From IMG/VR virus record IMGVR_UViG_3300045988_003907, positions 1 through 6,102 of that record: DNA of 6,102 bases. One strand, given 5' to 3'. This DNA comes from a virus. The translations under genes and the position numbers were made by a program. Below are positions 1-6,102 of this stretch, in pieces. Below the pieces are notes generated by a model. It did not search any database, had not been told where the DNA came from, and saw nothing but the letters and a program-made list of their open reading frames with translations. Every line of letters starts with the position of its first letter. The first letter of the stretch is position 1.

Positions 1-134
1 GTCTTATCAGAGATTACTACATCCCACAGTGCTTGTACCTGTTCGCGGTAACGGCTGCCACCGCGTGCCAGTGCTTCGTAGTACTGCTGTACTGCTACGG
101 CTTTTCTTAAGTCGTTGATGGTTGCCGCCGTTAC
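1..134. repeat. Exact inverted (foldback) copy of 5969..6102, an internal part of the capsid gene; probable chimera or assembly artefact
   Basis: The reverse complement of 1..134 matches 5969..6102 base for base (checked in 10-nt blocks). The match breaks at 135/5968. Positions 1..55 also pair perfectly with 127..181. Confidence 0.9.
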
Positions 135-181
135 CGCGAACAGGTACAAGCACTGTGGGATGTAGTAATCTCTGATAAGAC
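127..181 (+). repeat. 55-nt direct terminal redundancy with 6048..6102 (circularisation overlap)
   Basis: The string gccgttaccgcgaacaggtacaagcactgtgggatgtagtaatctctgataagac occurs identically at both places. The upstream bases differ (c at 126, a at 6047). Confidence 0.95.
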
Positions 182-812
182 GGTACAAATCCCAGAATAC
201 TTGGGAGGTGGCAGATACCACGTCAACATGAACCAAATCGTGCAGACAAGCGGACAGCAAAGCGACACAGACACACCTATTGGCGAAACTGGCGCAATGT
301 CAGTGACACCGATCAATGAAAGTTCCTTCACCAAATCGTTTGAAGAGCACGGCTTTGTAATTGGCGTATGTTGTGTGCGACACAATCACAGTTACCAGCA
401 AGGCTTGGAGCGTTTCTGGAGCAGATCGGAAAGACTGGATTACTATGTGCCTCAGTTCGCAAACTTAGGCGAACAGCCTGTCAAAAAGAAAGAAATCATG
501 TTAACCGGCCTTGGAACCGACGAGGAGACATTTGGCTATCAGGAAGCCTGGTCAGACTACAGAATGAAGCCTAACCGGGTATCCGGCAAAATGAGAAGCA
601 ATGCAGAAGGCACACTGGAATTCTGGCACTATGCGGACAAATACGATAAAGTACCAACGCTATCGCAAGAATGGATGACAGAAGGGAAAAACGAAATTGC
701 ACGAACATTGATAGTACAGAATGAGCCGCAATTCTTCGGAGCAATCCGCGTAGCAAACAAAACCACAAGGCGGATGCCGTTGTACAGCGTACCGGGCTTG
801 TATAAACTGTAA
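180..812 (+). CDS. VP1: Major capsid protein VP1, C-terminal part (continuation of 5057..6102; whole protein 558 aa)
   Basis: The frame of track ORF 201..812 stays open upstream to 111. Codon 180..182 (acg) equals 6101..6102 plus 182. The joined sequence reads ...LRKAVAVQQYYEALARGGSRYREQVQALWDVVISDKTVQIPEYLGGGRYHVNMNQ...QEAWSDYRMKPNRVSG...RRMPLYSVPGLYKL*, which carries conserved Microviridae capsid motifs. The TTG 'start' at 201 in the track is an artefact of ORF calling. Confidence 0.93.
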   Translation, partial: TVQIPEYLGGGRYHVNMNQIVQTSGQQSDTDTPIGETGAMSVTPINESSFTKSFEEHGFVIGVCCVRHNHSYQQGLERFWSRSERLDYYVPQFANLGEQPVKKKEIMLTGLGTDEETFGYQEAWSDYRMKPNRVSGKMRSNAEGTLEFWHYADKYDKVPTLSQEWMTEGKNEIARTLIVQNEPQFFGAIRVANKTTRRMPLYSVPGLYKL

Positions 813-813
813 G

Positions 814-822
814 AAAGGAGGA
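814..822 (+). promoter_or_regulatory. Shine-Dalgarno sequence (aaaggagga) for VP2, separated from its ATG by the hairpin at 823..842
   Basis: A perfect SD core directly follows the VP1 stop (810..812). It lies 28 nt from ATG 851 in linear distance but only 8 nt if the hairpin is folded. Confidence 0.5.
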
Positions 823-848
823 AGCCCGGAGAAATCCGGGCTATTTTT
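823..848 (+). terminator. Intrinsic-terminator-like hairpin after VP1
   Basis: 8-bp GC-rich stem agcccgga/tccgggct (823..830 and 835..842), a GAAA tetraloop, then a T5 run within atttttaa (T run at 844..848). Confidence 0.65.
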
Positions 849-850
849 AA

Positions 851-1714
851 ATGGGAGCATTATCAGGATTCTTAACAGCGCTAAACGTAGCGGGAAACGT
901 GGCAAACACAATCGGAACTGTTGCAGGAGCAGCTAAAAACGTAGCCGGAGCGTTTGGCGGATGGGGACAGACAGGCAATAGCCAAAGTACCGGCGGCAGC
1001 GTAAGCCAAGGCGGCGGACACTCGGAAAGCGGAAGTCAATCCGGCACAAACGTAAAGCAAGTTGACGACTGGCTAAAACAGGCATACGCATACCAAGGAC
1101 AAGAAGCAGCCATGCAAGGTAAATACAACAGTCAAAGTATGCTTAAACAGATGGGTTACAACACCTTACAAGCAATCATGCAAGGCGTATACAACCACAT
1201 CGAAAACAGCGTAGCCATGAACTACAACAGTGCAGAAGCACTAGCAAGCCGTGAATGGCAAGAGCGCATGTCAAGCACTGCATACCAGCGTGCAGTTGAA
1301 GACATGAAAAAAGCGGGACTTAATCCCATCTTAGCATTCTCAAACGGCGGCGCAAGCACACCGGGAGGAAGTGCAGGAACAATCAGCGGAGCAAGTATGG
1401 GACTTGCAAGCAGCAGCGCACTAGGAGTAAGCCGAAGCGGAGGATTTGTACCAAACGCATACGAAAGTTCCAGCTGGTCACAAAGTGACTGGTACAATGC
1501 AGCGCAAAGCTGGCAACAAATGCTCAGTACAACGCACATGACGCCATACGGACTACAAAAGGCACTTACAGAAGTAGGAAACGACACAAGCAAGGCTATT
1601 ACGGATGCAACAGCAAAGACAGGCAAAGGCGCAGAGCAGAGCAGAAGCATGAAGCCACAAGACAAAACGGGAAACTACGGAGAAAAACGAAAGCCGGGTG
1701 ATTACTTAAAGTGA
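851..1714 (+). CDS. VP2: VP2 minor capsid / DNA pilot protein (287 aa)
   Basis: The N-terminus is Gly/Ala-rich and hydrophobic (MGALSGFLTALNVAGNVANTIGTVAGAA...). The conserved gokushovirus VP2 block REWQERMSSTAYQRAVEDMKKAGLNPILAFS is present. The gene lies immediately after VP1. Confidence 0.9.
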   Translation: MGALSGFLTALNVAGNVANTIGTVAGAAKNVAGAFGGWGQTGNSQSTGGSVSQGGGHSESGSQSGTNVKQVDDWLKQAYAYQGQEAAMQGKYNSQSMLKQMGYNTLQAIMQGVYNHIENSVAMNYNSAEALASREWQERMSSTAYQRAVEDMKKAGLNPILAFSNGGASTPGGSAGTISGASMGLASSSALGVSRSGGFVPNAYESSSWSQSDWYNAAQSWQQMLSTTHMTPYGLQKALTEVGNDTSKAITDATAKTGKGAEQSRSMKPQDKTGNYGEKRKPGDYLK

Positions 1715-2730
1715 GTTGTTACAAGCCATTAATACGGCTGTACAACCCTAACGACAAAAACATCAGCGGGAGAGTGTATTCGCTCTCCCGCTATTCTCAG
1801 TTAGCGGGAAAACAGCTGAAGTATGAAGATTTGATGTATAGAAAAGATGTCATGTTGATACCATGCGGGCAGTGCATCGGATGCAGAATCAGACAAAGGG
1901 AGGACTGGACAACACGAATAGAATTAGAAGCACGAGACTATCCAAGAGAAGAAGTTTGGTTTATCACGTTGACTTATGACGAGGACCATGTACCGGGCAT
2001 GATAGTAAACACAGGTGAAATCATGCGAAAAGTACAATACGTCTGGAAACCGGGAGAGAAGCGCCCTGAAAGCGTCCAAACGTTGCTGTATACTGACGTT
2101 CAAAAGTTCTTAAAACGTCTCAGAAAGGCTTATAGGGGCAAATTACGCTATTTCGTAGCGGGAGAGTACGGAGAACAGACAGCTAGGCCACATTACCACA
2201 TGATTTTATATGGATGGAAACCAACAGACCTAGAACACTTATACAAGATACAACACAACGGATATTTCACAAGTAAATGGCTAGAAAGCCTATGGGGCAT
2301 GGGTCAAATCCAAATAGCGCAAGCAGTGCCAGAAACTTATAGATACGTTGCAGGATACGTCACAAAAAAAATGTACGAGATAGACGGTCAGAAAGCAAAC
2401 GTATACTACGAACTAGGGCAACAAAAGCCTTTTGCGTGTATGAGTCTTAAGCCGGGTCTGGGAGACCGCTACTATCAAGAACACAAAGCGGAGATATGGA
2501 GACAAGGCTACATCCAATGCACAAACGGCAAACACGCACAAATTCCGCGTTATTATGAAAAAATGATGGAAGCGGAAAACCCACAAAGATTGTGGAGAAT
2601 TAAACAGAACAGACAAGCAGCAGCCATAGCGGAGAACCGGCTTAAGTATGAAAATGCAGACTTTGCAGAGCAATGTAAGACAAAAGAAAGAGTGATAAAG
2701 AAGCAGATGAAGAAGAGAGGGACCCTTTGA
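1711..2730 (+). CDS. VP4: VP4 replication initiator, HUH rolling-circle endonuclease (phiX174 A homologue, 339 aa)
   Basis: The GTG start overlaps the VP2 stop (GTGA, 1711..1714). The N-terminus MSCYKP and the Cys cluster PCGQCIGCR are typical. Motif ITLTYD is present, as is the HUH motif RPHYHMILYG (HYH at 2191..2199). The two-tyrosine catalytic motif YVAGYVTKK has its Tyr codons at 2344..2346 and 2356..2358. Confidence 0.95.
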   Translation: MSCYKPLIRLYNPNDKNISGRVYSLSRYSQLAGKQLKYEDLMYRKDVMLIPCGQCIGCRIRQREDWTTRIELEARDYPREEVWFITLTYDEDHVPGMIVNTGEIMRKVQYVWKPGEKRPESVQTLLYTDVQKFLKRLRKAYRGKLRYFVAGEYGEQTARPHYHMILYGWKPTDLEHLYKIQHNGYFTSKWLESLWGMGQIQIAQAVPETYRYVAGYVTKKMYEIDGQKANVYYELGQQKPFACMSLKPGLGDRYYQEHKAEIWRQGYIQCTNGKHAQIPRYYEKMMEAENPQRLWRIKQNRQAAAIAENRLKYENADFAEQCKTKERVIKKQMKKRGTL

Positions 2731-2736
2731 CGGTGT

Positions 2737-2778
2737 CATCTAGCCCAGTACCTATCAAGTAAGGTACTGGGCTAGATG
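2737..2778. other. Perfect 16-bp stem-loop 7 nt downstream of the VP4 stop; either a terminator or an ssDNA origin/priming structure
   Basis: catctagcccagtacc (2737..2752) pairs with ggtactgggctagatg (2763..2778) with no mismatch. The loop is the 10-nt tatcaagtaa. Only a weak T tract follows (tcgtttaaag). Confidence 0.6.
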
Positions 2779-2834
2779 TCGTTTAAAGATTCCATGTATC
2801 AGCCTATTAAGTCTATCAAATAGCTATATCTTAT

Positions 2835-2877
2835 CGCGCGTGCGCACACGCGCGAAGCGCGCACGCGCGCACGCGCG
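2835..2877. repeat. GC-rich alternating purine-pyrimidine element with tandem GCGCACGC units and several possible hairpins
   Basis: 2835..2854 (cgcgcgtgcgcacacgcgcg) and 2857..2877 (gcgcgcacgcgcgcacgcgcg) are both perfectly alternating Py/Pu. GCGCACGC is tandem at 2859..2866 and 2867..2874. The segment 2835..2845 is complementary to 2859..2869 and also to 2867..2877. Confidence 0.8.
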
Positions 2878-3015
2878 GCTCTTCGGCGCTATAGTTCGCA
2901 AGCTCACAAGCGCCGTAAATAATATAACTTGTTGTAGGAGTAGTAGTAGAGGTGGTGGAAAAGTTGAAAAGTACTAAAATTTAACGTTAAGACGTAAATA
3001 AAAAGCAAAAAACAC

Positions 3016-3055
3016 TGTTGAAAGAATTGTTGAAAACTTGTTGAATTGTTGAAAG
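3016..3055 (+). repeat. Iteron-like cluster A: four direct copies of TGTTGAAAR
   Basis: Copies are tgttgaaag 3016..3024, tgttgaaaa 3028..3036, tgttgaat 3039..3046 (degenerate) and tgttgaaag 3047..3055. All have the same orientation. There is an outlier agttgaaaa at 2962..2970. Confidence 0.8.
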
Positions 3056-3072
3056 TTCGTCAAAATGACGAA
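3056..3072. repeat. Small palindrome TTCGTCA-AAA-TGACGAA between the two iteron clusters
   Basis: ttcgtca (3056..3062) is the reverse complement of tgacgaa (3066..3072), separated by a 3-nt spacer. Confidence 0.7.
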
Positions 3073-3090
3073 AACCTTTGTGCAACTTTA

Positions 3091-3128
3091 TGTTGAAAAC
3101 CTGTTGAAAGTGTTGAAAGTGTTGAAAA
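3091..3128 (+). repeat. Iteron-like cluster B: four direct copies of TGTTGAAAR, three of them exactly tandem (9-nt period)
   Basis: Copies are tgttgaaaa 3091..3099, tgttgaaag 3102..3110, tgttgaaag 3111..3119 and tgttgaaaa 3120..3128. Confidence 0.85.
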
Positions 3129-3269
3129 CGCGCACAGCGCTAAAAAGGAATGGATTAGCCGAGCTCCGCGTGCGCTACGCACGGCAAGGCGCAAAAGCGC
3201 TTTCAAAACAAAAGAGCAAAACCGGGTTGCAAGAGAAAGTTACAAATATATTACAAAAAAACAAAATCA

Positions 3270-3298
3270 TTAAAAAGCCTATTGAAAAACGATATAAT
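3270..3298 (+). promoter_or_regulatory. Candidate sigma70-type promoter for the accessory cassette
   Basis: TTAAAA (3270..3275), a 17-nt spacer, then a perfect TATAAT (3293..3298), about 30 nt upstream of ATG 3330. The background is A/T-rich, so chance matches are likely. Confidence 0.3.
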
Positions 3299-3329
3299 AG
3301 AATCAGAAAAAGAAAGGAGAGCGCGAACC

Positions 3330-3548
3330 ATGAAAAAAATCTACATGAGCGAGCAAAATTACATAGAACTTAATTTTTTTGGATACATAATGGCAAAAAA
3401 ATACAAATACGAAAAATCATATAAGAAAGGAGAAAAAATTATTTGCAGAAAGTACGCATTCGAACTGGGAGATGAAAAAGACGAGAACAGGTTATACAAA
3501 GCAGAAAAAAGATTCATAGAAAATGTAATCGTAGTAAAGAAAGGTTGA
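3330..3548 (+). CDS. Hypothetical protein, 72 aa, Lys/Tyr-rich, no recognisable family
   Basis: ATG 3330 is preceded by SD aaaggaga (3313..3320, 9-nt spacing). It lies in frame within track ORF 3282..3548, and its stop abuts the peptidase gene. No transmembrane segment is apparent. Confidence 0.55.
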   Translation: MKKIYMSEQNYIELNFFGYIMAKKYKYEKSYKKGEKIICRKYAFELGDEKDENRLYKAEKRFIENVIVVKKG

Positions 3549-3553
3549 CGAAA

Positions 3554-3946
3554 ATGATTAAAAGCTATATCATGGACACAGACGGAAACGTAAAACTGGC
3601 AAGACACTTCAAAGTAAAAGAATTTGCTTGCAAAGACGGCAGTCAAGTAGTGTTCATAGACGACTACCTGTACACCGTTCTGGATATCTTACGACATAAG
3701 CTAGGAAAGCCGGTAATCATCACCAGCGGATACAGAACACCAGAATGGAACAAAAAATGCAACGGAGCAAAATACAGCTACCACATGCGCGGTATGGCAG
3801 CAGACATCCGAGTAGATGGCATGAATGCAAAAGAGCTTGCCAACAAACTGAATGAAATCGTACCGGATGAATGCGGCATTATCGTATACAAAAATTGGGT
3901 ACACTTTGACGTGCGACCCGGAAAAAAATACAGAAAGGGGGTATAA
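3554..3946 (+). CDS. Zinc D,D/L,D-peptidase of the LAS / Peptidase_M15 (YcbK-like, M15_3-type) fold; candidate endolysin (130 aa)
   Basis: ATG 3554 (SD agaaagg at 3538..3544) lies in frame within track ORF 3545..3946. Family-typical N-terminal block: HFKVKEFACKDG. SGYR is followed by the zinc ligands H-x6-D in SYHMRGMAAD (His 3782..3784, Asp 3803..3805). The distal WVHFDV supplies the third ligand (His 3902..3904). Confidence 0.85.
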   Translation: MIKSYIMDTDGNVKLARHFKVKEFACKDGSQVVFIDDYLYTVLDILRHKLGKPVIITSGYRTPEWNKKCNGAKYSYHMRGMAADIRVDGMNAKELANKLNEIVPDECGIIVYKNWVHFDVRPGKKYRKGV

Positions 3947-3947
3947 A

Positions 3948-4070
3948 ATGGCACTGATCTCTATTAAAGACGTCAAACAGGCAATCCGCATTATGATGCA
4001 GATTCTCGAAAAGCTTGACGAGATCTATCACGCACTGCACGACAGCATCAACGAAAACGAAAAGGAGTAA
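3948..4070 (+). CDS. Hypothetical small protein, 40 aa (MALISIKDVKQAIRIMMQILEKLDEIYHALHDSINENEKE)
   Basis: ATG 3948 begins 1 nt after the peptidase stop, with SD gaaaggggg (3933..3941). It is in frame with track ORF 3852..4070, whose upstream part overlaps the peptidase and is unlikely to be real. Confidence 0.45.
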   Translation: MALISIKDVKQAIRIMMQILEKLDEIYHALHDSINENEKE

Positions 4071-4074
4071 AATC

Positions 4075-4302
4075 ATGATGCACAAAGCATGGAACGTACG
4101 CGACCAGACCAAAGAAGCATTGGAAGAACTACTCACACGAAAATACAAAGAAATTGACAGCGATTACAAAATGCTTAGAAAAGTGTCAAACATTGAGGAT
4201 GCAAAAAGGCTGGTAGATGAAATTTGGCAGATAAAAAGCTTTGCAAACGCTATCGAACTGGAACTGATTAGAAGGGAGTACATCAATGGCACGACATCGT
4301 AA
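4075..4302 (+). CDS. Hypothetical protein, 75 aa, predicted all-helical and charged
   Basis: ATG 4075 has SD aaaggag (4061..4067, 7-nt spacing). This is the plausible start of track ORF 4015..4302. Confidence 0.6.
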   Translation: MMHKAWNVRDQTKEALEELLTRKYKEIDSDYKMLRKVSNIEDAKRLVDEIWQIKSFANAIELELIRREYINGTTS

Positions 4303-4408
4303 AGCAATGACCGGCGCAAAAGACCGCCGTATGTTTAACGTAACCGCACGAAAAACCAAAACTATCAACCTCAGCCAGAAGCCTATGAGAGGCGGCATCC
4401 GGCTGTAA
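4286..4408 (+). CDS. VP8: VP8-type Arg/Lys-rich DNA-binding (packaging) peptide, 40 aa (functional analogue of phiX174 J)
   Basis: Absent from the ORF track because it is too short. ATG 4286 has SD gaagggag (4271..4278, 7-nt spacing). The translation is MARHRKAMTGAKDRRMFNVTARKTKTINLSQKPMRGGIRL*. The basic N-terminus, the RRMF..TA core and the C-terminal MRGGIRL match the gokushovirus ORF8 pattern as I remember it from Chlamydia phages. Confidence 0.8.
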   Translation: MARHRKAMTGAKDRRMFNVTARKTKTINLSQKPMRGGIRL

Positions 4409-4429
4409 AACAAAAGGAGAATAGATATC

Positions 4430-4669
4430 ATGAAGCATGAATATTTTGGCCTGTGGGACAGTGTAGCAAAGTGCTATGCATGGGTAGGCGAAAGCAAGAA
4501 CAGTGCAACGTTCGCACGTATGTGCAATGTGATGGCAAAAGATGAAAAAACGTTTGTCGGACAAGCGCCGGGTGACTACACCGGCTTTAAACTGGCAGTG
4601 TTCGAAGATGAACAGGGCACGTTCGCAAACGACAAGGAAAAGGTATGGGAGGGCAAGCCAAATGAATAA
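4430..4669 (+). CDS. VP5: Small non-structural protein, VP5-like (79 aa); function tentative
   Basis: ATG 4430 has SD aaaggaga (4413..4420). It occupies the position before VP3 typical of gokushovirus VP5. The pattern F.LWDSVAKCY...KNSATFARM...DYTGFKLAVFEDEQGTF resembles that family from memory only. Confidence 0.6.
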   Translation: MKHEYFGLWDSVAKCYAWVGESKNSATFARMCNVMAKDEKTFVGQAPGDYTGFKLAVFEDEQGTFANDKEKVWEGKPNE

Positions 4670-5060
4670 ACGATATGAAGAAGGGCGAGAGCCCTTCTTT
4701 TCTGAATCAGGCGAAAAAATGCGAAAGCAATACGTCTGGACGAAGGACGAAAAAGGACAGGAAGTGCTCCAGGAAACTGCACCAATCGACATCCAGCAGG
4801 AAATTGAAAGCTATGCGGACGAATGTGACATCAAAAGCATTATCAGAAAAGCAAGTTTCGACCCGCAGTTTCTAAAAAGCCTGTCAGAAGGAGCGCTAAA
4901 CGGAACAGAAGTGGACATCACCGAATTCCCGCAGAACATTCACGAGTATCATCGCATGCTAGCGACCGCACAGGCAAACGCCATGAAACTTGAAGAACTG
5001 CAAAAAGCAGCAAAAGAAGAACCAACAGTAGAACCTAAAGCAAAGGAGGAAGAAAAGTGA
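4662..5060 (+). CDS. VP3: VP3 internal scaffolding protein (132 aa)
   Basis: ATG 4662 overlaps the VP5 stop (ATGAATAA) and has SD gggaggg at 4647..4653. The conserved ...ESYADECDIKSIIRKA... (DECDI-type) block and an acidic/Lys-rich C-terminus are present. The gene lies directly upstream of VP1. The track start at 4542 would overlap VP5 by 128 nt and is rejected. Confidence 0.8.
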   Translation: MNKRYEEGREPFFSESGEKMRKQYVWTKDEKGQEVLQETAPIDIQQEIESYADECDIKSIIRKASFDPQFLKSLSEGALNGTEVDITEFPQNIHEYHRMLATAQANAMKLEELQKAAKEEPTVEPKAKEEEK

Positions 5061-6102
5061 ATCGAAACAATGAGCGACACTTTAACCAGATTCCGGAAAT
5101 GAAAGCAAGTCGAACGCGGTTTAATCGTGACCAGACGGTTTTAACAACATTCGATGCCGGCAAGCTGATTCCGTTTTACGTTGATGAAGTATTACCCGGC
5201 GACACATTTAGCGTGGACACGTCGGCAATCGTCCGAATGACAACGCCGAAATTTCCTGTTTTCGATGACGCGTTCATCGACTTTTACTACTTCTACTGTC
5301 CTAACCGTATCTTATGGGACAACTTCAAGCAATTCATGGGAGAAGTAGAGGAAACGCCGTGGATGCCGAAAAGAACCTATACAGTACCCAAAATCATCAT
5401 CTCAGGCAGCAAAGATAACCCGGCGCCATATGAAGAGTCAATACTGGATTACATGGGAATCCCAACGAAAGTTCAAAACGGCTTCATGGTAAACGCACTA
5501 CCAGTCAGAGCATATGTAAAAATCTGGAATGAATTTTTCAGAGATGAAAACGTAGGAAATGCGGCATCCATCAAAACCGATGACAACAACGTAATTTACG
5601 ATGACACAGAAGACGATGGAAACATCGACGGAAATCTGCAACGGGCAAACACGGGCGGCAGATGCTTACCGGTAAACAAGTTTCACGACTACTTCACCAG
5701 CTGCCTACCGTATCCTCAGCGCGGGCCGGAAGTAGTAATGCCGATGCAGGGCAATGCAAGAATAACCGGATACGCAGATGATAAATTCAACGAAAGAGCA
5801 CCCCTATATGTAAACAGCTTTCATGACGGAAGCACAAACCCGGGCAACATCAAAGACAAACTGTATGCAATCGCACAAGATGGAGGCAAAGGATCAGCAT
5901 ACCTAGCCATTGGAGACGGAACAGGCACAGAACATAGCGTGGTATACCTGGGAGCAGACCTCGGAAGCGTAACGGCGGCAACCATCAACGACTTAAGAAA
6001 AGCCGTAGCAGTACAGCAGTACTACGAAGCACTGGCACGCGGTGGCAGCCGTTACCGCGAACAGGTACAAGCACTGTGGGATGTAGTAATCTCTGATAAG
6101 AC
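5057..6102 (+). CDS. VP1: Major capsid protein VP1 (phiX174 F homologue), N-terminal 348 codons plus 2 nt; continues at 182
   Basis: The GTG start at 5057 overlaps the VP3 stop (GTGA) and has the SD aaaggagga at 5042..5050. The translation begins NRNNERHFNQIPEMKASRTRFNRDQTVLTTFDAGKLIPFYVDEVLPGDTFSVD..., the hallmark Microviridae capsid N-terminus. I translated the frame by hand to the window end and found no stop. The ORF track omits it because it has no stop inside the window. Confidence 0.95.
   Translation, partial: MNRNNERHFNQIPEMKASRTRFNRDQTVLTTFDAGKLIPFYVDEVLPGDTFSVDTSAIVRMTTPKFPVFDDAFIDFYYFYCPNRILWDNFKQFMGEVEETPWMPKRTYTVPKIIISGSKDNPAPYEESILDYMGIPTKVQNGFMVNALPVRAYVKIWNEFFRDENVGNAASIKTDDNNVIYDDTEDDGNIDGNLQRANTGGRCLPVNKFHDYFTSCLPYPQRGPEVVMPMQGNARITGYADDKFNERAPLYVNSFHDGSTNPGNIKDKLYAIAQDGGKGSAYLAIGDGTGTEHSVVYLGADLGSVTAATINDLRKAVAVQQYYEALARGGSRYREQVQALWDVVISDK

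Follow-up and report, generated by a model that had tools for sequence, protein, structure and literature searches.

A putative oriC-like module in a gokushovirus genome

The IMG/VR virus record IMGVR_UViG_3300045988_003907 (positions 1 to 6,102; we refer to this whole 6,102-nt stretch as the window) covers a gokushovirus (Microviridae) genome in full (~5.92 kb), together with redundant assembly sequence. Its sole long non-coding stretch, 2731-3329, carries an array of short direct repeats, TGTTGAAAR, and we found that this array belongs to a discrete element of ~210 nt (2919-3129, the cassette) that is probably an oriC-like DnaA module. Host DnaA would open the phage replicative form at this site, most likely to let helicase and primase enter. 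The repeats appear to be DnaA boxes of an Oscillospiraceae/Ruminococcus type (TTTTCAACA / TTTTCCACA), interchangeable with the canonical box TTATCCACA. The cassette shares sequence identity with host chromosome origins, is conserved among gokushoviruses and is kept independently of orientation and genome position; from this we would predict that DnaA binds there and unwinds the DNA, that helicase is loaded and that the host may be affected.

A previous reading of this DNA from its letters alone (the sequence-only reading) had singled out the region as two clusters of direct repeats flanking a palindrome, and its description of the array proved accurate. TGTTGAAAR occurs exactly seven times in the window, always on the + strand (3016, 3028, 3047, 3091, 3102, 3111 and 3120), against 0.20 copies expected by shuffling, and 0 of 200 shuffled sequences reached seven. 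An eighth, truncated copy at 3039 (TGTTGAATT) retains the exact 7-nt core and differs in its final two bases, and a degenerate outlier lies at 2962-2970 (AGTTGAAAA). The start-to-start spacings (12, 11, 8 and 11, 9, 9 nt), the palindrome TTCGTCA-AAA-TGACGAA (3056-3072) and an open reading frame (ORF) at 3065..3373 were likewise found as described. That reading overlooked that the array is only the 3' two-thirds of the cassette, and that the outlier is one of a pair of boxes 4 nt from a TAG run (2935-2949). The picture of two repeat sets flanking a core therefore leaves out what would be the functional head, namely the trios and the proximal box pair (2935-2970), and the palindrome does not hold up as a core because other clades have a different hairpin or none.

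The cassette is organized as follows, with all of its boxes in one orientation:

2919..3129, + strand: whole cassette, ~210 nt, with the same BLAST ends across many gokushoviruses
2916..2934, + strand: AT-rich stretch (15 of 19 bases A/T) in the position of a DNA-unwinding element, containing TAACTTGTTG (2925-2934; alignment A1)
2935..2949, + strand: five putative DnaA-trios, TAG GAG TAG TAG TAG (5'-TAG-3' equals the 3'-GAT-5' consensus)
2950..2953, + strand: 4-nt trio-to-box spacer, AGGT here and GGGG/GGGC/GGAG in most phages and hosts
2954..2962, + strand: putative proximal DnaA box B1, GGTGGAAAA, where host origins have the box next to the trios; consensus among relatives TGTGGAAAA / TGTTGAAA
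2962..2970, + strand: putative second, co-oriented box B2, AGTTGAAAA, where hosts show TGTTGAAAcTGTTGAAAa
2971..3015, + strand: variable AT-rich spacer with low column conservation (103 cassettes)
3016..3055, + strand: distal cluster 1, co-oriented with B1 and B2 (3016 TGTTGAAAG, 3028 TGTTGAAAA, 3039 TGTTGAATT, 3047 TGTTGAAAG)
3056..3072, no strand: palindrome TTCGTCA-AAA-TGACGAA, clade-specific and outside the cassette core
3079..3087, + strand: weak box-like site TGTGCAACT, which departs at one base from TGTGNAWAA, the relaxed DnaA-box consensus
3091..3128, + strand: distal cluster 2 (boxes at 3091, 3102, 3111 and 3120)

Alignment of 103 distinct phage cassettes revealed that conservation peaks in the 5' block, which reads TAACTTGTTG, TAG-NNG-TAG-TAG-TAG, a short G-rich spacer, and the boxes TGTGGAAAA then GTTGAAAAG. 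Within the cassette no columns are better conserved than the trios, of which the three nearest the boxes do not vary at all, and at least 91 of the 103 contain TAACTTGTTG. After this block come a variable AT-rich spacer, four boxes, a variable hairpin region, TTGTGCAAC and four more boxes. The hairpin differs by clade, being reduced to CGTCA-NNN-TGACG in one, replaced by GCACAAA-N4-TTTGTGC in another and missing from a third. TTGTGCAAC is kept in most cassettes at the site that reads TGTGCAACT in the window (3079-3087), which may be a weak DnaA box. At homologous positions, TGTTGAAAA, TGTGGAAAA and TGTGGATAA, the reverse complement of the canonical DnaA box TTATCCACA, replace one another; the 3028 position holds TGTGGATAA in 12 and TGTGGAAAA in 4 of the 103 relatives, and the 3091 position holds TGTGGAAAA in 38.

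This organization resembles the basal unwinding system (BUS) of bacterial origins, in which two co-oriented DnaA boxes direct a DnaA-ATP oligomer onto adjacent 3'-GAT-5' trios and the duplex is opened; a BUS has at least three trios (3'-NAN-5', consensus 3'-GAT-5') within 16 bp of a box, and tandem co-oriented boxes (PMC8287927; PMC10721633). In the minimal incC of Bacillus subtilis, distal boxes assist at a distance in either orientation (PMC6669920). The window carries five trios at 2935-2949, and relatives and hosts carry (TAG)4-5. A spacer of 4 nt follows and then the same-orientation boxes at 2954-2962 and 2962-2970, with AT-rich DNA beyond the trios at 2916-2934. The spacers between dnaA and dnaN and upstream of dnaA in Ruminococcus/Oscillospiraceae, the group to which we assign the host on sequence grounds, are full of the same 9-mers. 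We read the cassette as a BUS with two further clusters of boxes distal to it, apparently matching Oscillospiraceae origins. Because constraint is strongest on BUS geometry, the trios and the AT-rich block, the activity under selection would be DNA opening rather than mere display of boxes.

The cassette matches chromosome origins of Oscillospiraceae and Ruminococcus

A pattern of three boxes in a row, scanned against one genome per bacterial species, matched many Oscillospiraceae, Ruminococcaceae and Ruminococcus genomes, and none of these host loci contained microvirus genes. In a metagenome-assembled genome of a Ruminococcus sp. (L252), arrays lie between dnaA and dnaN and also upstream of dnaA, with yidC nearby. 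The DnaA of this locus was identified by Pfam (Bac_DnaA 8e-65, plus Bac_DnaA_C and DnaA_N), as was DnaN, and the array region is a classical Firmicutes oriC region. Arrays lie beside dnaA/dnaN in ten loci, six of which hold 13-30 TGTTGAAA boxes per 8 kb, compared with ~0.24 expected for an 8-mer. Read from the dnaN side, six dnaA-dnaN spacers show AT-rich DNA, (TAG)5, GGGG, and TGTTGAAAcTGTTGAAAa or near variants, and the phage 5' block matches host dnaA-dnaN spacers column for column (alignment A1). We report the trio columns as identical to the (TAG)5 run of the L280, L199, L204 and L252 spacers. The origin-like architecture proposed by the sequence-only reading is thus borne out by the match of the 5' part of the cassette to host dnaA-dnaN origins. 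Hosts carry generic AT-rich DNA at the position of TAACTTGTTG, and 119 phage loci each hold a single copy of the 13-mer TAACTTGTTGTAG, which no host locus contains. We assigned the boxes to DnaA because of their position within host origins and their interchange with canonical boxes.

The DnaA proteins of these hosts have an unusual recognition helix, GGRDHSTIVYS/A, where B. subtilis (8BTG), Aquifex (1L8Q/2HCB) and E. coli (1J1V) have GGRDHTTV(I/L)HA. DHSTIVY replaces the otherwise conserved DHTTV(I/L)H in DnaA of L252, L214, L280, L204 and L199, whose origins use TTTTCAACA boxes. The substituted Thr and His presumably correspond to T435 and H439, the base-contacting residues in the structure of E. 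coli domain IV with DNA. The Thr-to-Ser and His-to-Tyr changes would fit an altered box preference at position 6 (C to A), and this looks like a lineage-specific shift in DnaA-box specificity in Oscillospiraceae/Ruminococcus. By the match of the cassette to these origins, the phage hosts are probably Ruminococcus-like or other Oscillospiraceae.

The unit TGTTGAAAAC-N2-TGTTGAAA-N-TGTTGAAA, as in distal cluster 2, recurs across many Oscillospiraceae genomes. Units of the TGTTGAAAAC type are also found away from dnaA, upstream of unrelated genes (L233, L249, L250, L253, L261, L266 and others), and host triple boxes often follow a -10-like CATAAT. These units away from dnaA may be DnaA-box clusters or DnaA-regulated promoters.

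The cassette is conserved across gokushoviruses in both orientations

A VP4 search yielded 80 IMG/VR genomes with VP4 at least 90% identical, almost all of which carry the array, and pattern scans found it also where VP4 is only 37-57% identical. A further 46 GenBank gokushovirus records match (human, pig, monkey, mink and dog faeces). The unit recovered by BLAST has the same ends across relatives (2919/2925 to 3118/3131) with VP4 37-96% identical, and the cassette remains 73-95% nucleotide-identical even where proteins have strongly diverged. In total, the element is present in at least 158 of 190 distinct microvirus-sized contigs compared. The sequence-only reading had made its case depend on the motif recurring in relatives; TGTTGAAAR-type boxes and their layout are indeed kept in related phages, and the palindrome is clade-specific.

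Orientation varies among these genomes. Where VP4 is at least 80% identical, we counted at least 88 direct and at least 5 inverted cassettes; at 40-60% identity, at least 44 direct and at least 1 inverted; and below 40%, all 20 among the matches listed are inverted. In L002, L010, L035, L052, L058 and L062, exactly this segment is reversed between flanks that run in the usual direction. The clade with VP4 below 40% has the inverted cassette between VP2 and VP4, as opposed to downstream of VP4 elsewhere. Because the cassette is found with diverse VP4 proteins, in both orientations and at two genome positions, it does not appear to co-vary with any phage protein, and it would work in either orientation and be kept by selection.

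We considered an active invertible switch and rejected it, as inverted copies are 77-81% identical to that of the window and lie in rearranged flanks; the inversions are old evolutionary inversions or relocations rather than flip-flop switching. The only close relative lacking the cassette is L020 (8.8 kb), in which the region is replaced by ~3.4 kb with opposite-strand ORFs of 479, 211 and 120 amino acids (aa) (6117-8600). By eye these ORFs are tailed-phage-like, and L020 is most likely a chimeric assembly. Parts of the cassette are duplicated in some phages, with a second TTGTTGTAGTAGTAG head in L416 and two box triplets 148 nt apart in L082/L089/L108/L134/L147, which shows ongoing expansion and contraction of the module.

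A proposed role in opening the replicative form

In our proposal, DnaA-ATP of the host would bind the two boxes at 2954-2970 on the double-stranded replicative form with help from the distal boxes, polymerise onto the strand bearing the TAG trios and melt the AT-rich DNA at 2916-2934. The opened site could then serve as an entry point for the host replicative helicase and primase. In Firmicutes, helicase loading proceeds via DnaD, DnaB and DnaI. Such a site might provide either a second, DnaA-dependent mode of initiation or a priming site beside VP4 rolling circle, and a priming role would resemble the PriA-dependent assembly site of phiX174. Sequestration of about ten DnaA molecules per replicative-form copy would be an unavoidable side effect that may benefit the phage. 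A bolder form of the proposal is that these gokushoviruses have two replication modes, VP4 rolling circle and an oriC-type origin fired by host DnaA, and replicate in step with the chromosome; we regard this as possible but doubtful.

Several points weigh against an opening role. Binding and replication at the site are predictions from sequence comparison, as is the host. Position 6, normally a conserved position of the box, is not canonical in TTTTCAACA, and the proximal pair of the window is degenerate (GGTGGAAAA / AGTTGAAAA) and becomes consensus-like only in relatives. Since microviruses are known to use rolling-circle replication that does not involve DnaA, and these phages still encode VP4, it is not obvious why they would need a site opened by DnaA. 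Finally, because all boxes are direct repeats, the incoming single strand offers no double-stranded boxes, and the first step from single-stranded to double-stranded DNA is not accounted for by the cassette.

Alternative explanations for the cassette

The cassette might instead act only as a DnaA sponge that titrates host DnaA, stopping chromosome initiation or de-repressing DnaA-controlled genes, with no opening of phage DNA. Ten co-oriented boxes per genome copy would suit such a role, box clusters outside oriC are common in these hosts, and there is precedent in that growth is inhibited when DnaA-box regions of B. subtilis oriC are carried on multicopy plasmids, and DnaA is titrated by the E. 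coli locus datA. However, titration needs neither trios nor an unwinding element, and conservation is highest in the trios, the spacer and the AT-rich block beside them rather than in the boxes, with the full BUS geometry kept in every clade examined; we thus consider a pure sponge unlikely. The same objection applies to the idea that array-bound DnaA regulates a neighbouring phage promoter and so senses host replication status, since a repressor site needs no trios or AT-rich element. In most genomes the cassette does lie ~140 nt upstream of a sigma-70-like promoter (TTAAAA-17-TATAAT, 3270-3298 in the window), and the CATAAT that often precedes host triple boxes is compatible with this idea. 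This relation is lost in phages with an inverted cassette and in the clade with VP4 below 40%, where VP2 and VP4 flank the cassette, which makes transcriptional control quite improbable.

Another host protein associated with origins could bind the boxes, for example a Spo0A-like regulator, whose 0A box is TGNCGAA. TGTTGAA is one base off TGTCGAA, the palindrome contains two perfect 0A-type heptamers (TGACGAA/TTCGTCA), and phage phi29 has Spo0A sites. Yet the motif fills the trio-adjacent box positions of the BUS and swaps with TGTGGATAA, never with TGTCGAA, and the palindrome is altered or absent in other clades, leaving only a slim chance for a binder of this kind.

The sequence-only reading had named VP4, a small phage protein or a host factor as candidate binders; the host factor is now the best candidate, and the phage proteins have lost ground because the boxes stay the same across VP4 proteins that are 37-96% identical. 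In their favour, the cassette always adjoins VP4, and TAACTTGTTG is phage-specific and nearly invariant, so VP4 or a small phage protein could use the repeats as iterons or as an operator, or the cassette could be a rolling-circle origin nicked at AACTTG (2926-2931). TAACTTGTTG shares these six bases with the phiX174 nick-site heptamer, CAACTTG^A, and AACTTG is all that the cassette has in common with the ~30-nt phiX174-type origin, whose nick site, CAACTTG^ATATTAATAAC, fixes the displaced strand. Against such a role, the same boxes are found in bacterial chromosomes, and a Pfam run on ten window proteins found no DNA-binding domain in the small ORFs. Base composition bears on a nick site as well. 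Fourfold-degenerate sites of VP1 and VP4 are extremely biased on the coding strand in the window and its relatives (A 0.53 and T 0.11, with A in the range 0.41-0.54), and the direction of this bias is the same whether the cassette is direct or inverted, the old inverted clade included; phiX174 is T-rich, the opposite of the A-rich bias here. If the bias reflects the packaged strand, the cassette seems not to decide which strand is displaced and packaged, since the bias ignores its orientation, and this argues, indirectly, against a nick site inside the cassette. We judge binding by a phage protein or nicking within the cassette to be very unlikely. The suggestion of plasmid-type iterons in particular fails because the same 9-mer accompanies divergent VP4 proteins and occurs in bacterial chromosomes; moreover, the unit is 9 bp, compared with ~17-22 bp beside the rep gene of a theta replicon, and does not co-vary with an initiator.

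The grouping of short direct repeats in two sets of four, spaced 8-12 nt apart, also recalls a parC-type centromere, on which a ParR-like adaptor would segregate the replicative form, as the sequence-only reading had suggested. The ten window proteins searched with Pfam include no ParR, ParM, ParA, ParB or ribbon-helix-helix protein and no other DNA-binding partner for the repeats, and the motif matches host origin boxes and no plasmid, so this explanation is extremely improbable. Among 72,556 plasmids in PLSDB, the cassette found only chance matches of 27-28 nt, and a plasmid origin or centromere was rejected as its source on this basis. The probability that the repeats simply encode a peptide (LLKVLKVLK) within a translated ORF 3065..3373 is close to negligible. 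The frame is open here, and gene callers call it in three near-identical contigs; even so, it is not conserved, as the inversion breakpoint at 3129 cuts it in six relatives and, from the homologous ATG, it is only 20-79 aa in 61 of 67. Half of the boxes lie upstream of this ORF and boxes occur in all frames, which upholds the earlier view that the signal acts at the DNA level and is non-coding.

A scan of both strands of 2919-3129 for sigma-70 promoters and terminators found none inside the cassette, and a self-contained RNA gene or promoter array was rejected accordingly. A known structured RNA was also rejected, as an Rfam scan of the whole window at a permissive threshold (E up to 1) returned no match in 2700-3400 and the hairpins differ by clade. 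A decoy for CRISPR, prompted by a repeat tail (ATTGAAAG), was dropped after the host origins were found.

Comparison with known systems

Among known systems, the bacterial BUS, such as B. subtilis incC with DnaA-box 6/7, trios, AT-rich element and distal boxes, has every element in the same order as the cassette. Both have AT-rich DNA, at least three trios, a short G-rich spacer, two co-oriented boxes and further boxes 50-170 bp on, and the cassette is near-identical in sequence to Ruminococcus/Oscillospiraceae dnaA-dnaN origins. Unlike a chromosomal BUS, however, the cassette resides on a ~5.9-kb single-stranded DNA (ssDNA) phage that has its own HUH rolling-circle initiator and no dnaA/dnaN flanks, all of its boxes point one way, it contains the invariant, phage-specific TAACTTGTTG, and it is movable and invertible.

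In P1 oriR, F oriS, pSC101, RK2 oriV and R6K, host DnaA boxes beside an AT-rich region aid opening and helicase recruitment. Those plasmid origins combine iterons for their own Rep with accessory DnaA boxes, whereas the cassette has a full trio BUS and no element-specific iterons. It resembles E. coli datA, B. subtilis box clusters and multicopy inc regions in placing dense non-origin boxes on a multicopy molecule; trios and an unwinding element are needless at such titrating loci and are conserved in the cassette. The phiX174 primosome assembly site and the ABC primosome site formed by a DnaA-box hairpin in R6K/pBR322 act as folded ssDNA. Like these, the cassette would be a non-coding site for loading helicase and primase on a small replicon, intergenic as in phiX174 and G4, but its direct repeats cannot pair and so it would have to act on duplex DNA. 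With R1 parC and plasmid iterons it shares two groups of short direct repeats; it differs in that its motif is a host origin box of 9 rather than 17-22 bp and has no cognate phage protein. The Spo0A/Spo0J sites of phi29 offer a parallel, being arrays on a lytic phage to which proteins that maintain the host chromosome bind, although the protein and motif are different, and the phi29 sites repress phage development and include no unwinding module.

The kind of element is thus already known, namely the BUS of a DnaA-dependent origin. What is new is the setting: an ssDNA phage that replicates by rolling circle carries it as a portable cassette that can be inverted, every box faces the same way, and the unwinding position is occupied by a phage-specific block. 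In the textbook view, microviruses are independent of DnaA and replicate by rolling circle with a phage HUH nickase and host helicase and polymerase. Full-text searches of the papers available to us returned none linking Microviridae or gokushoviruses to DnaA boxes, oriC or trios. A complete module conserved in at least 158 gokushovirus genomes implies that widespread phages of the human and pig gut recruit the host initiator, contrary to the expectation that microviruses ignore DnaA. It also allows phages without a cultured host to be assigned one (Oscillospiraceae/Ruminococcus) from sequence, and it offers a testable mechanism in the form of DnaA binding, unwinding and helicase loading, or titration that arrests the host. 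Furthermore, it exposes a lineage-specific DnaA box, TTTTCAACA, which bears on origin prediction in abundant gut bacteria. Should the two-mode proposal hold, it would point to a plasmid-like carrier state with vertical inheritance in Ruminococcus-like hosts, and mimicry of oriC could be read as a host label for uncultured microviruses. To our knowledge, a plasmid-like carrier lifestyle is not known for Microviridae.

Genome context and further observations

The contig ends of the window are redundant. The contig start is an assembly foldback, in which bases 1-62 match the last 62 exactly as reverse complement, and 127-181 are a direct repeat of the last 55 bases, so that the redundant ends span 1-181 and 5978-6102. 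Because of this foldback and direct repeat, the true circular genome would be ~5.92 kb. The same phage is present as free contigs of 5936-5976 nt in three metagenome assemblies. Every gene is on the + strand:

851-1714, + strand: VP2
1711-2730, + strand: VP4, the rolling-circle Rep (Pfam REP_ORF2-G2P)
3554-3946, + strand: M15 peptidase (Pfam)
4430-4669, + strand: ORF5 (Pfam)
4662-5060, + strand: scaffold protein, Chlamydia-phage type (Pfam)
from 5057, wrapping to 201-812, + strand: capsid F (Pfam)

One further Pfam match among the window proteins, gp32-like, was sub-threshold (E 0.007).

Canonical boxes in a BUS arrangement were also sought. The pattern TAGTAGTAG-N3-10-TGTGGATAA found one microvirus with a single box, and a canonical-box BUS in other microviruses was rejected, this lone match being probably due to chance. 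IMG/VR contigs of 7-160 kb do carry canonical BUS-like modules that consist of AT-rich DNA, TAG repeats, GGGC/GGCC, TGTGGATAAtGTGGATAA and more boxes (L314/L326/L352, L324/L329/L341, L325, L335/L357, L345, L349, L362 and L363). No dnaA lies beside the module in these contigs, which may be double-stranded DNA phages or phage-plasmids with oriC-type origins, or host contamination.

Other sequence features surround the cassette. Directly 3' of the VP4 stop lies a perfect 17-bp inverted repeat with an 8-nt loop (2737-2778) that is followed by no T-run and is kept in relatives, the chimeric L020 included; it is a candidate for the true rolling-circle or complementary-strand origin. The 23-mer ACGCGCACAGCGCTAAAAAGGAA (3128-3150) is exact in 40 of 146 microvirus loci, and in the divergent L089/L163 clade it is found at the VP4 3' end rather than beside the cassette. 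GC-rich self-complementary blocks flank the cassette on both sides (2835-2914 and 3160-3200) and contain mini-palindromes of the CGCGCGTGCGCACACGCGCG and GCGCACAGCGC type. These blocks are lost or rearranged where relatives have an inverted cassette, and they may be the recombination points for its inversion.

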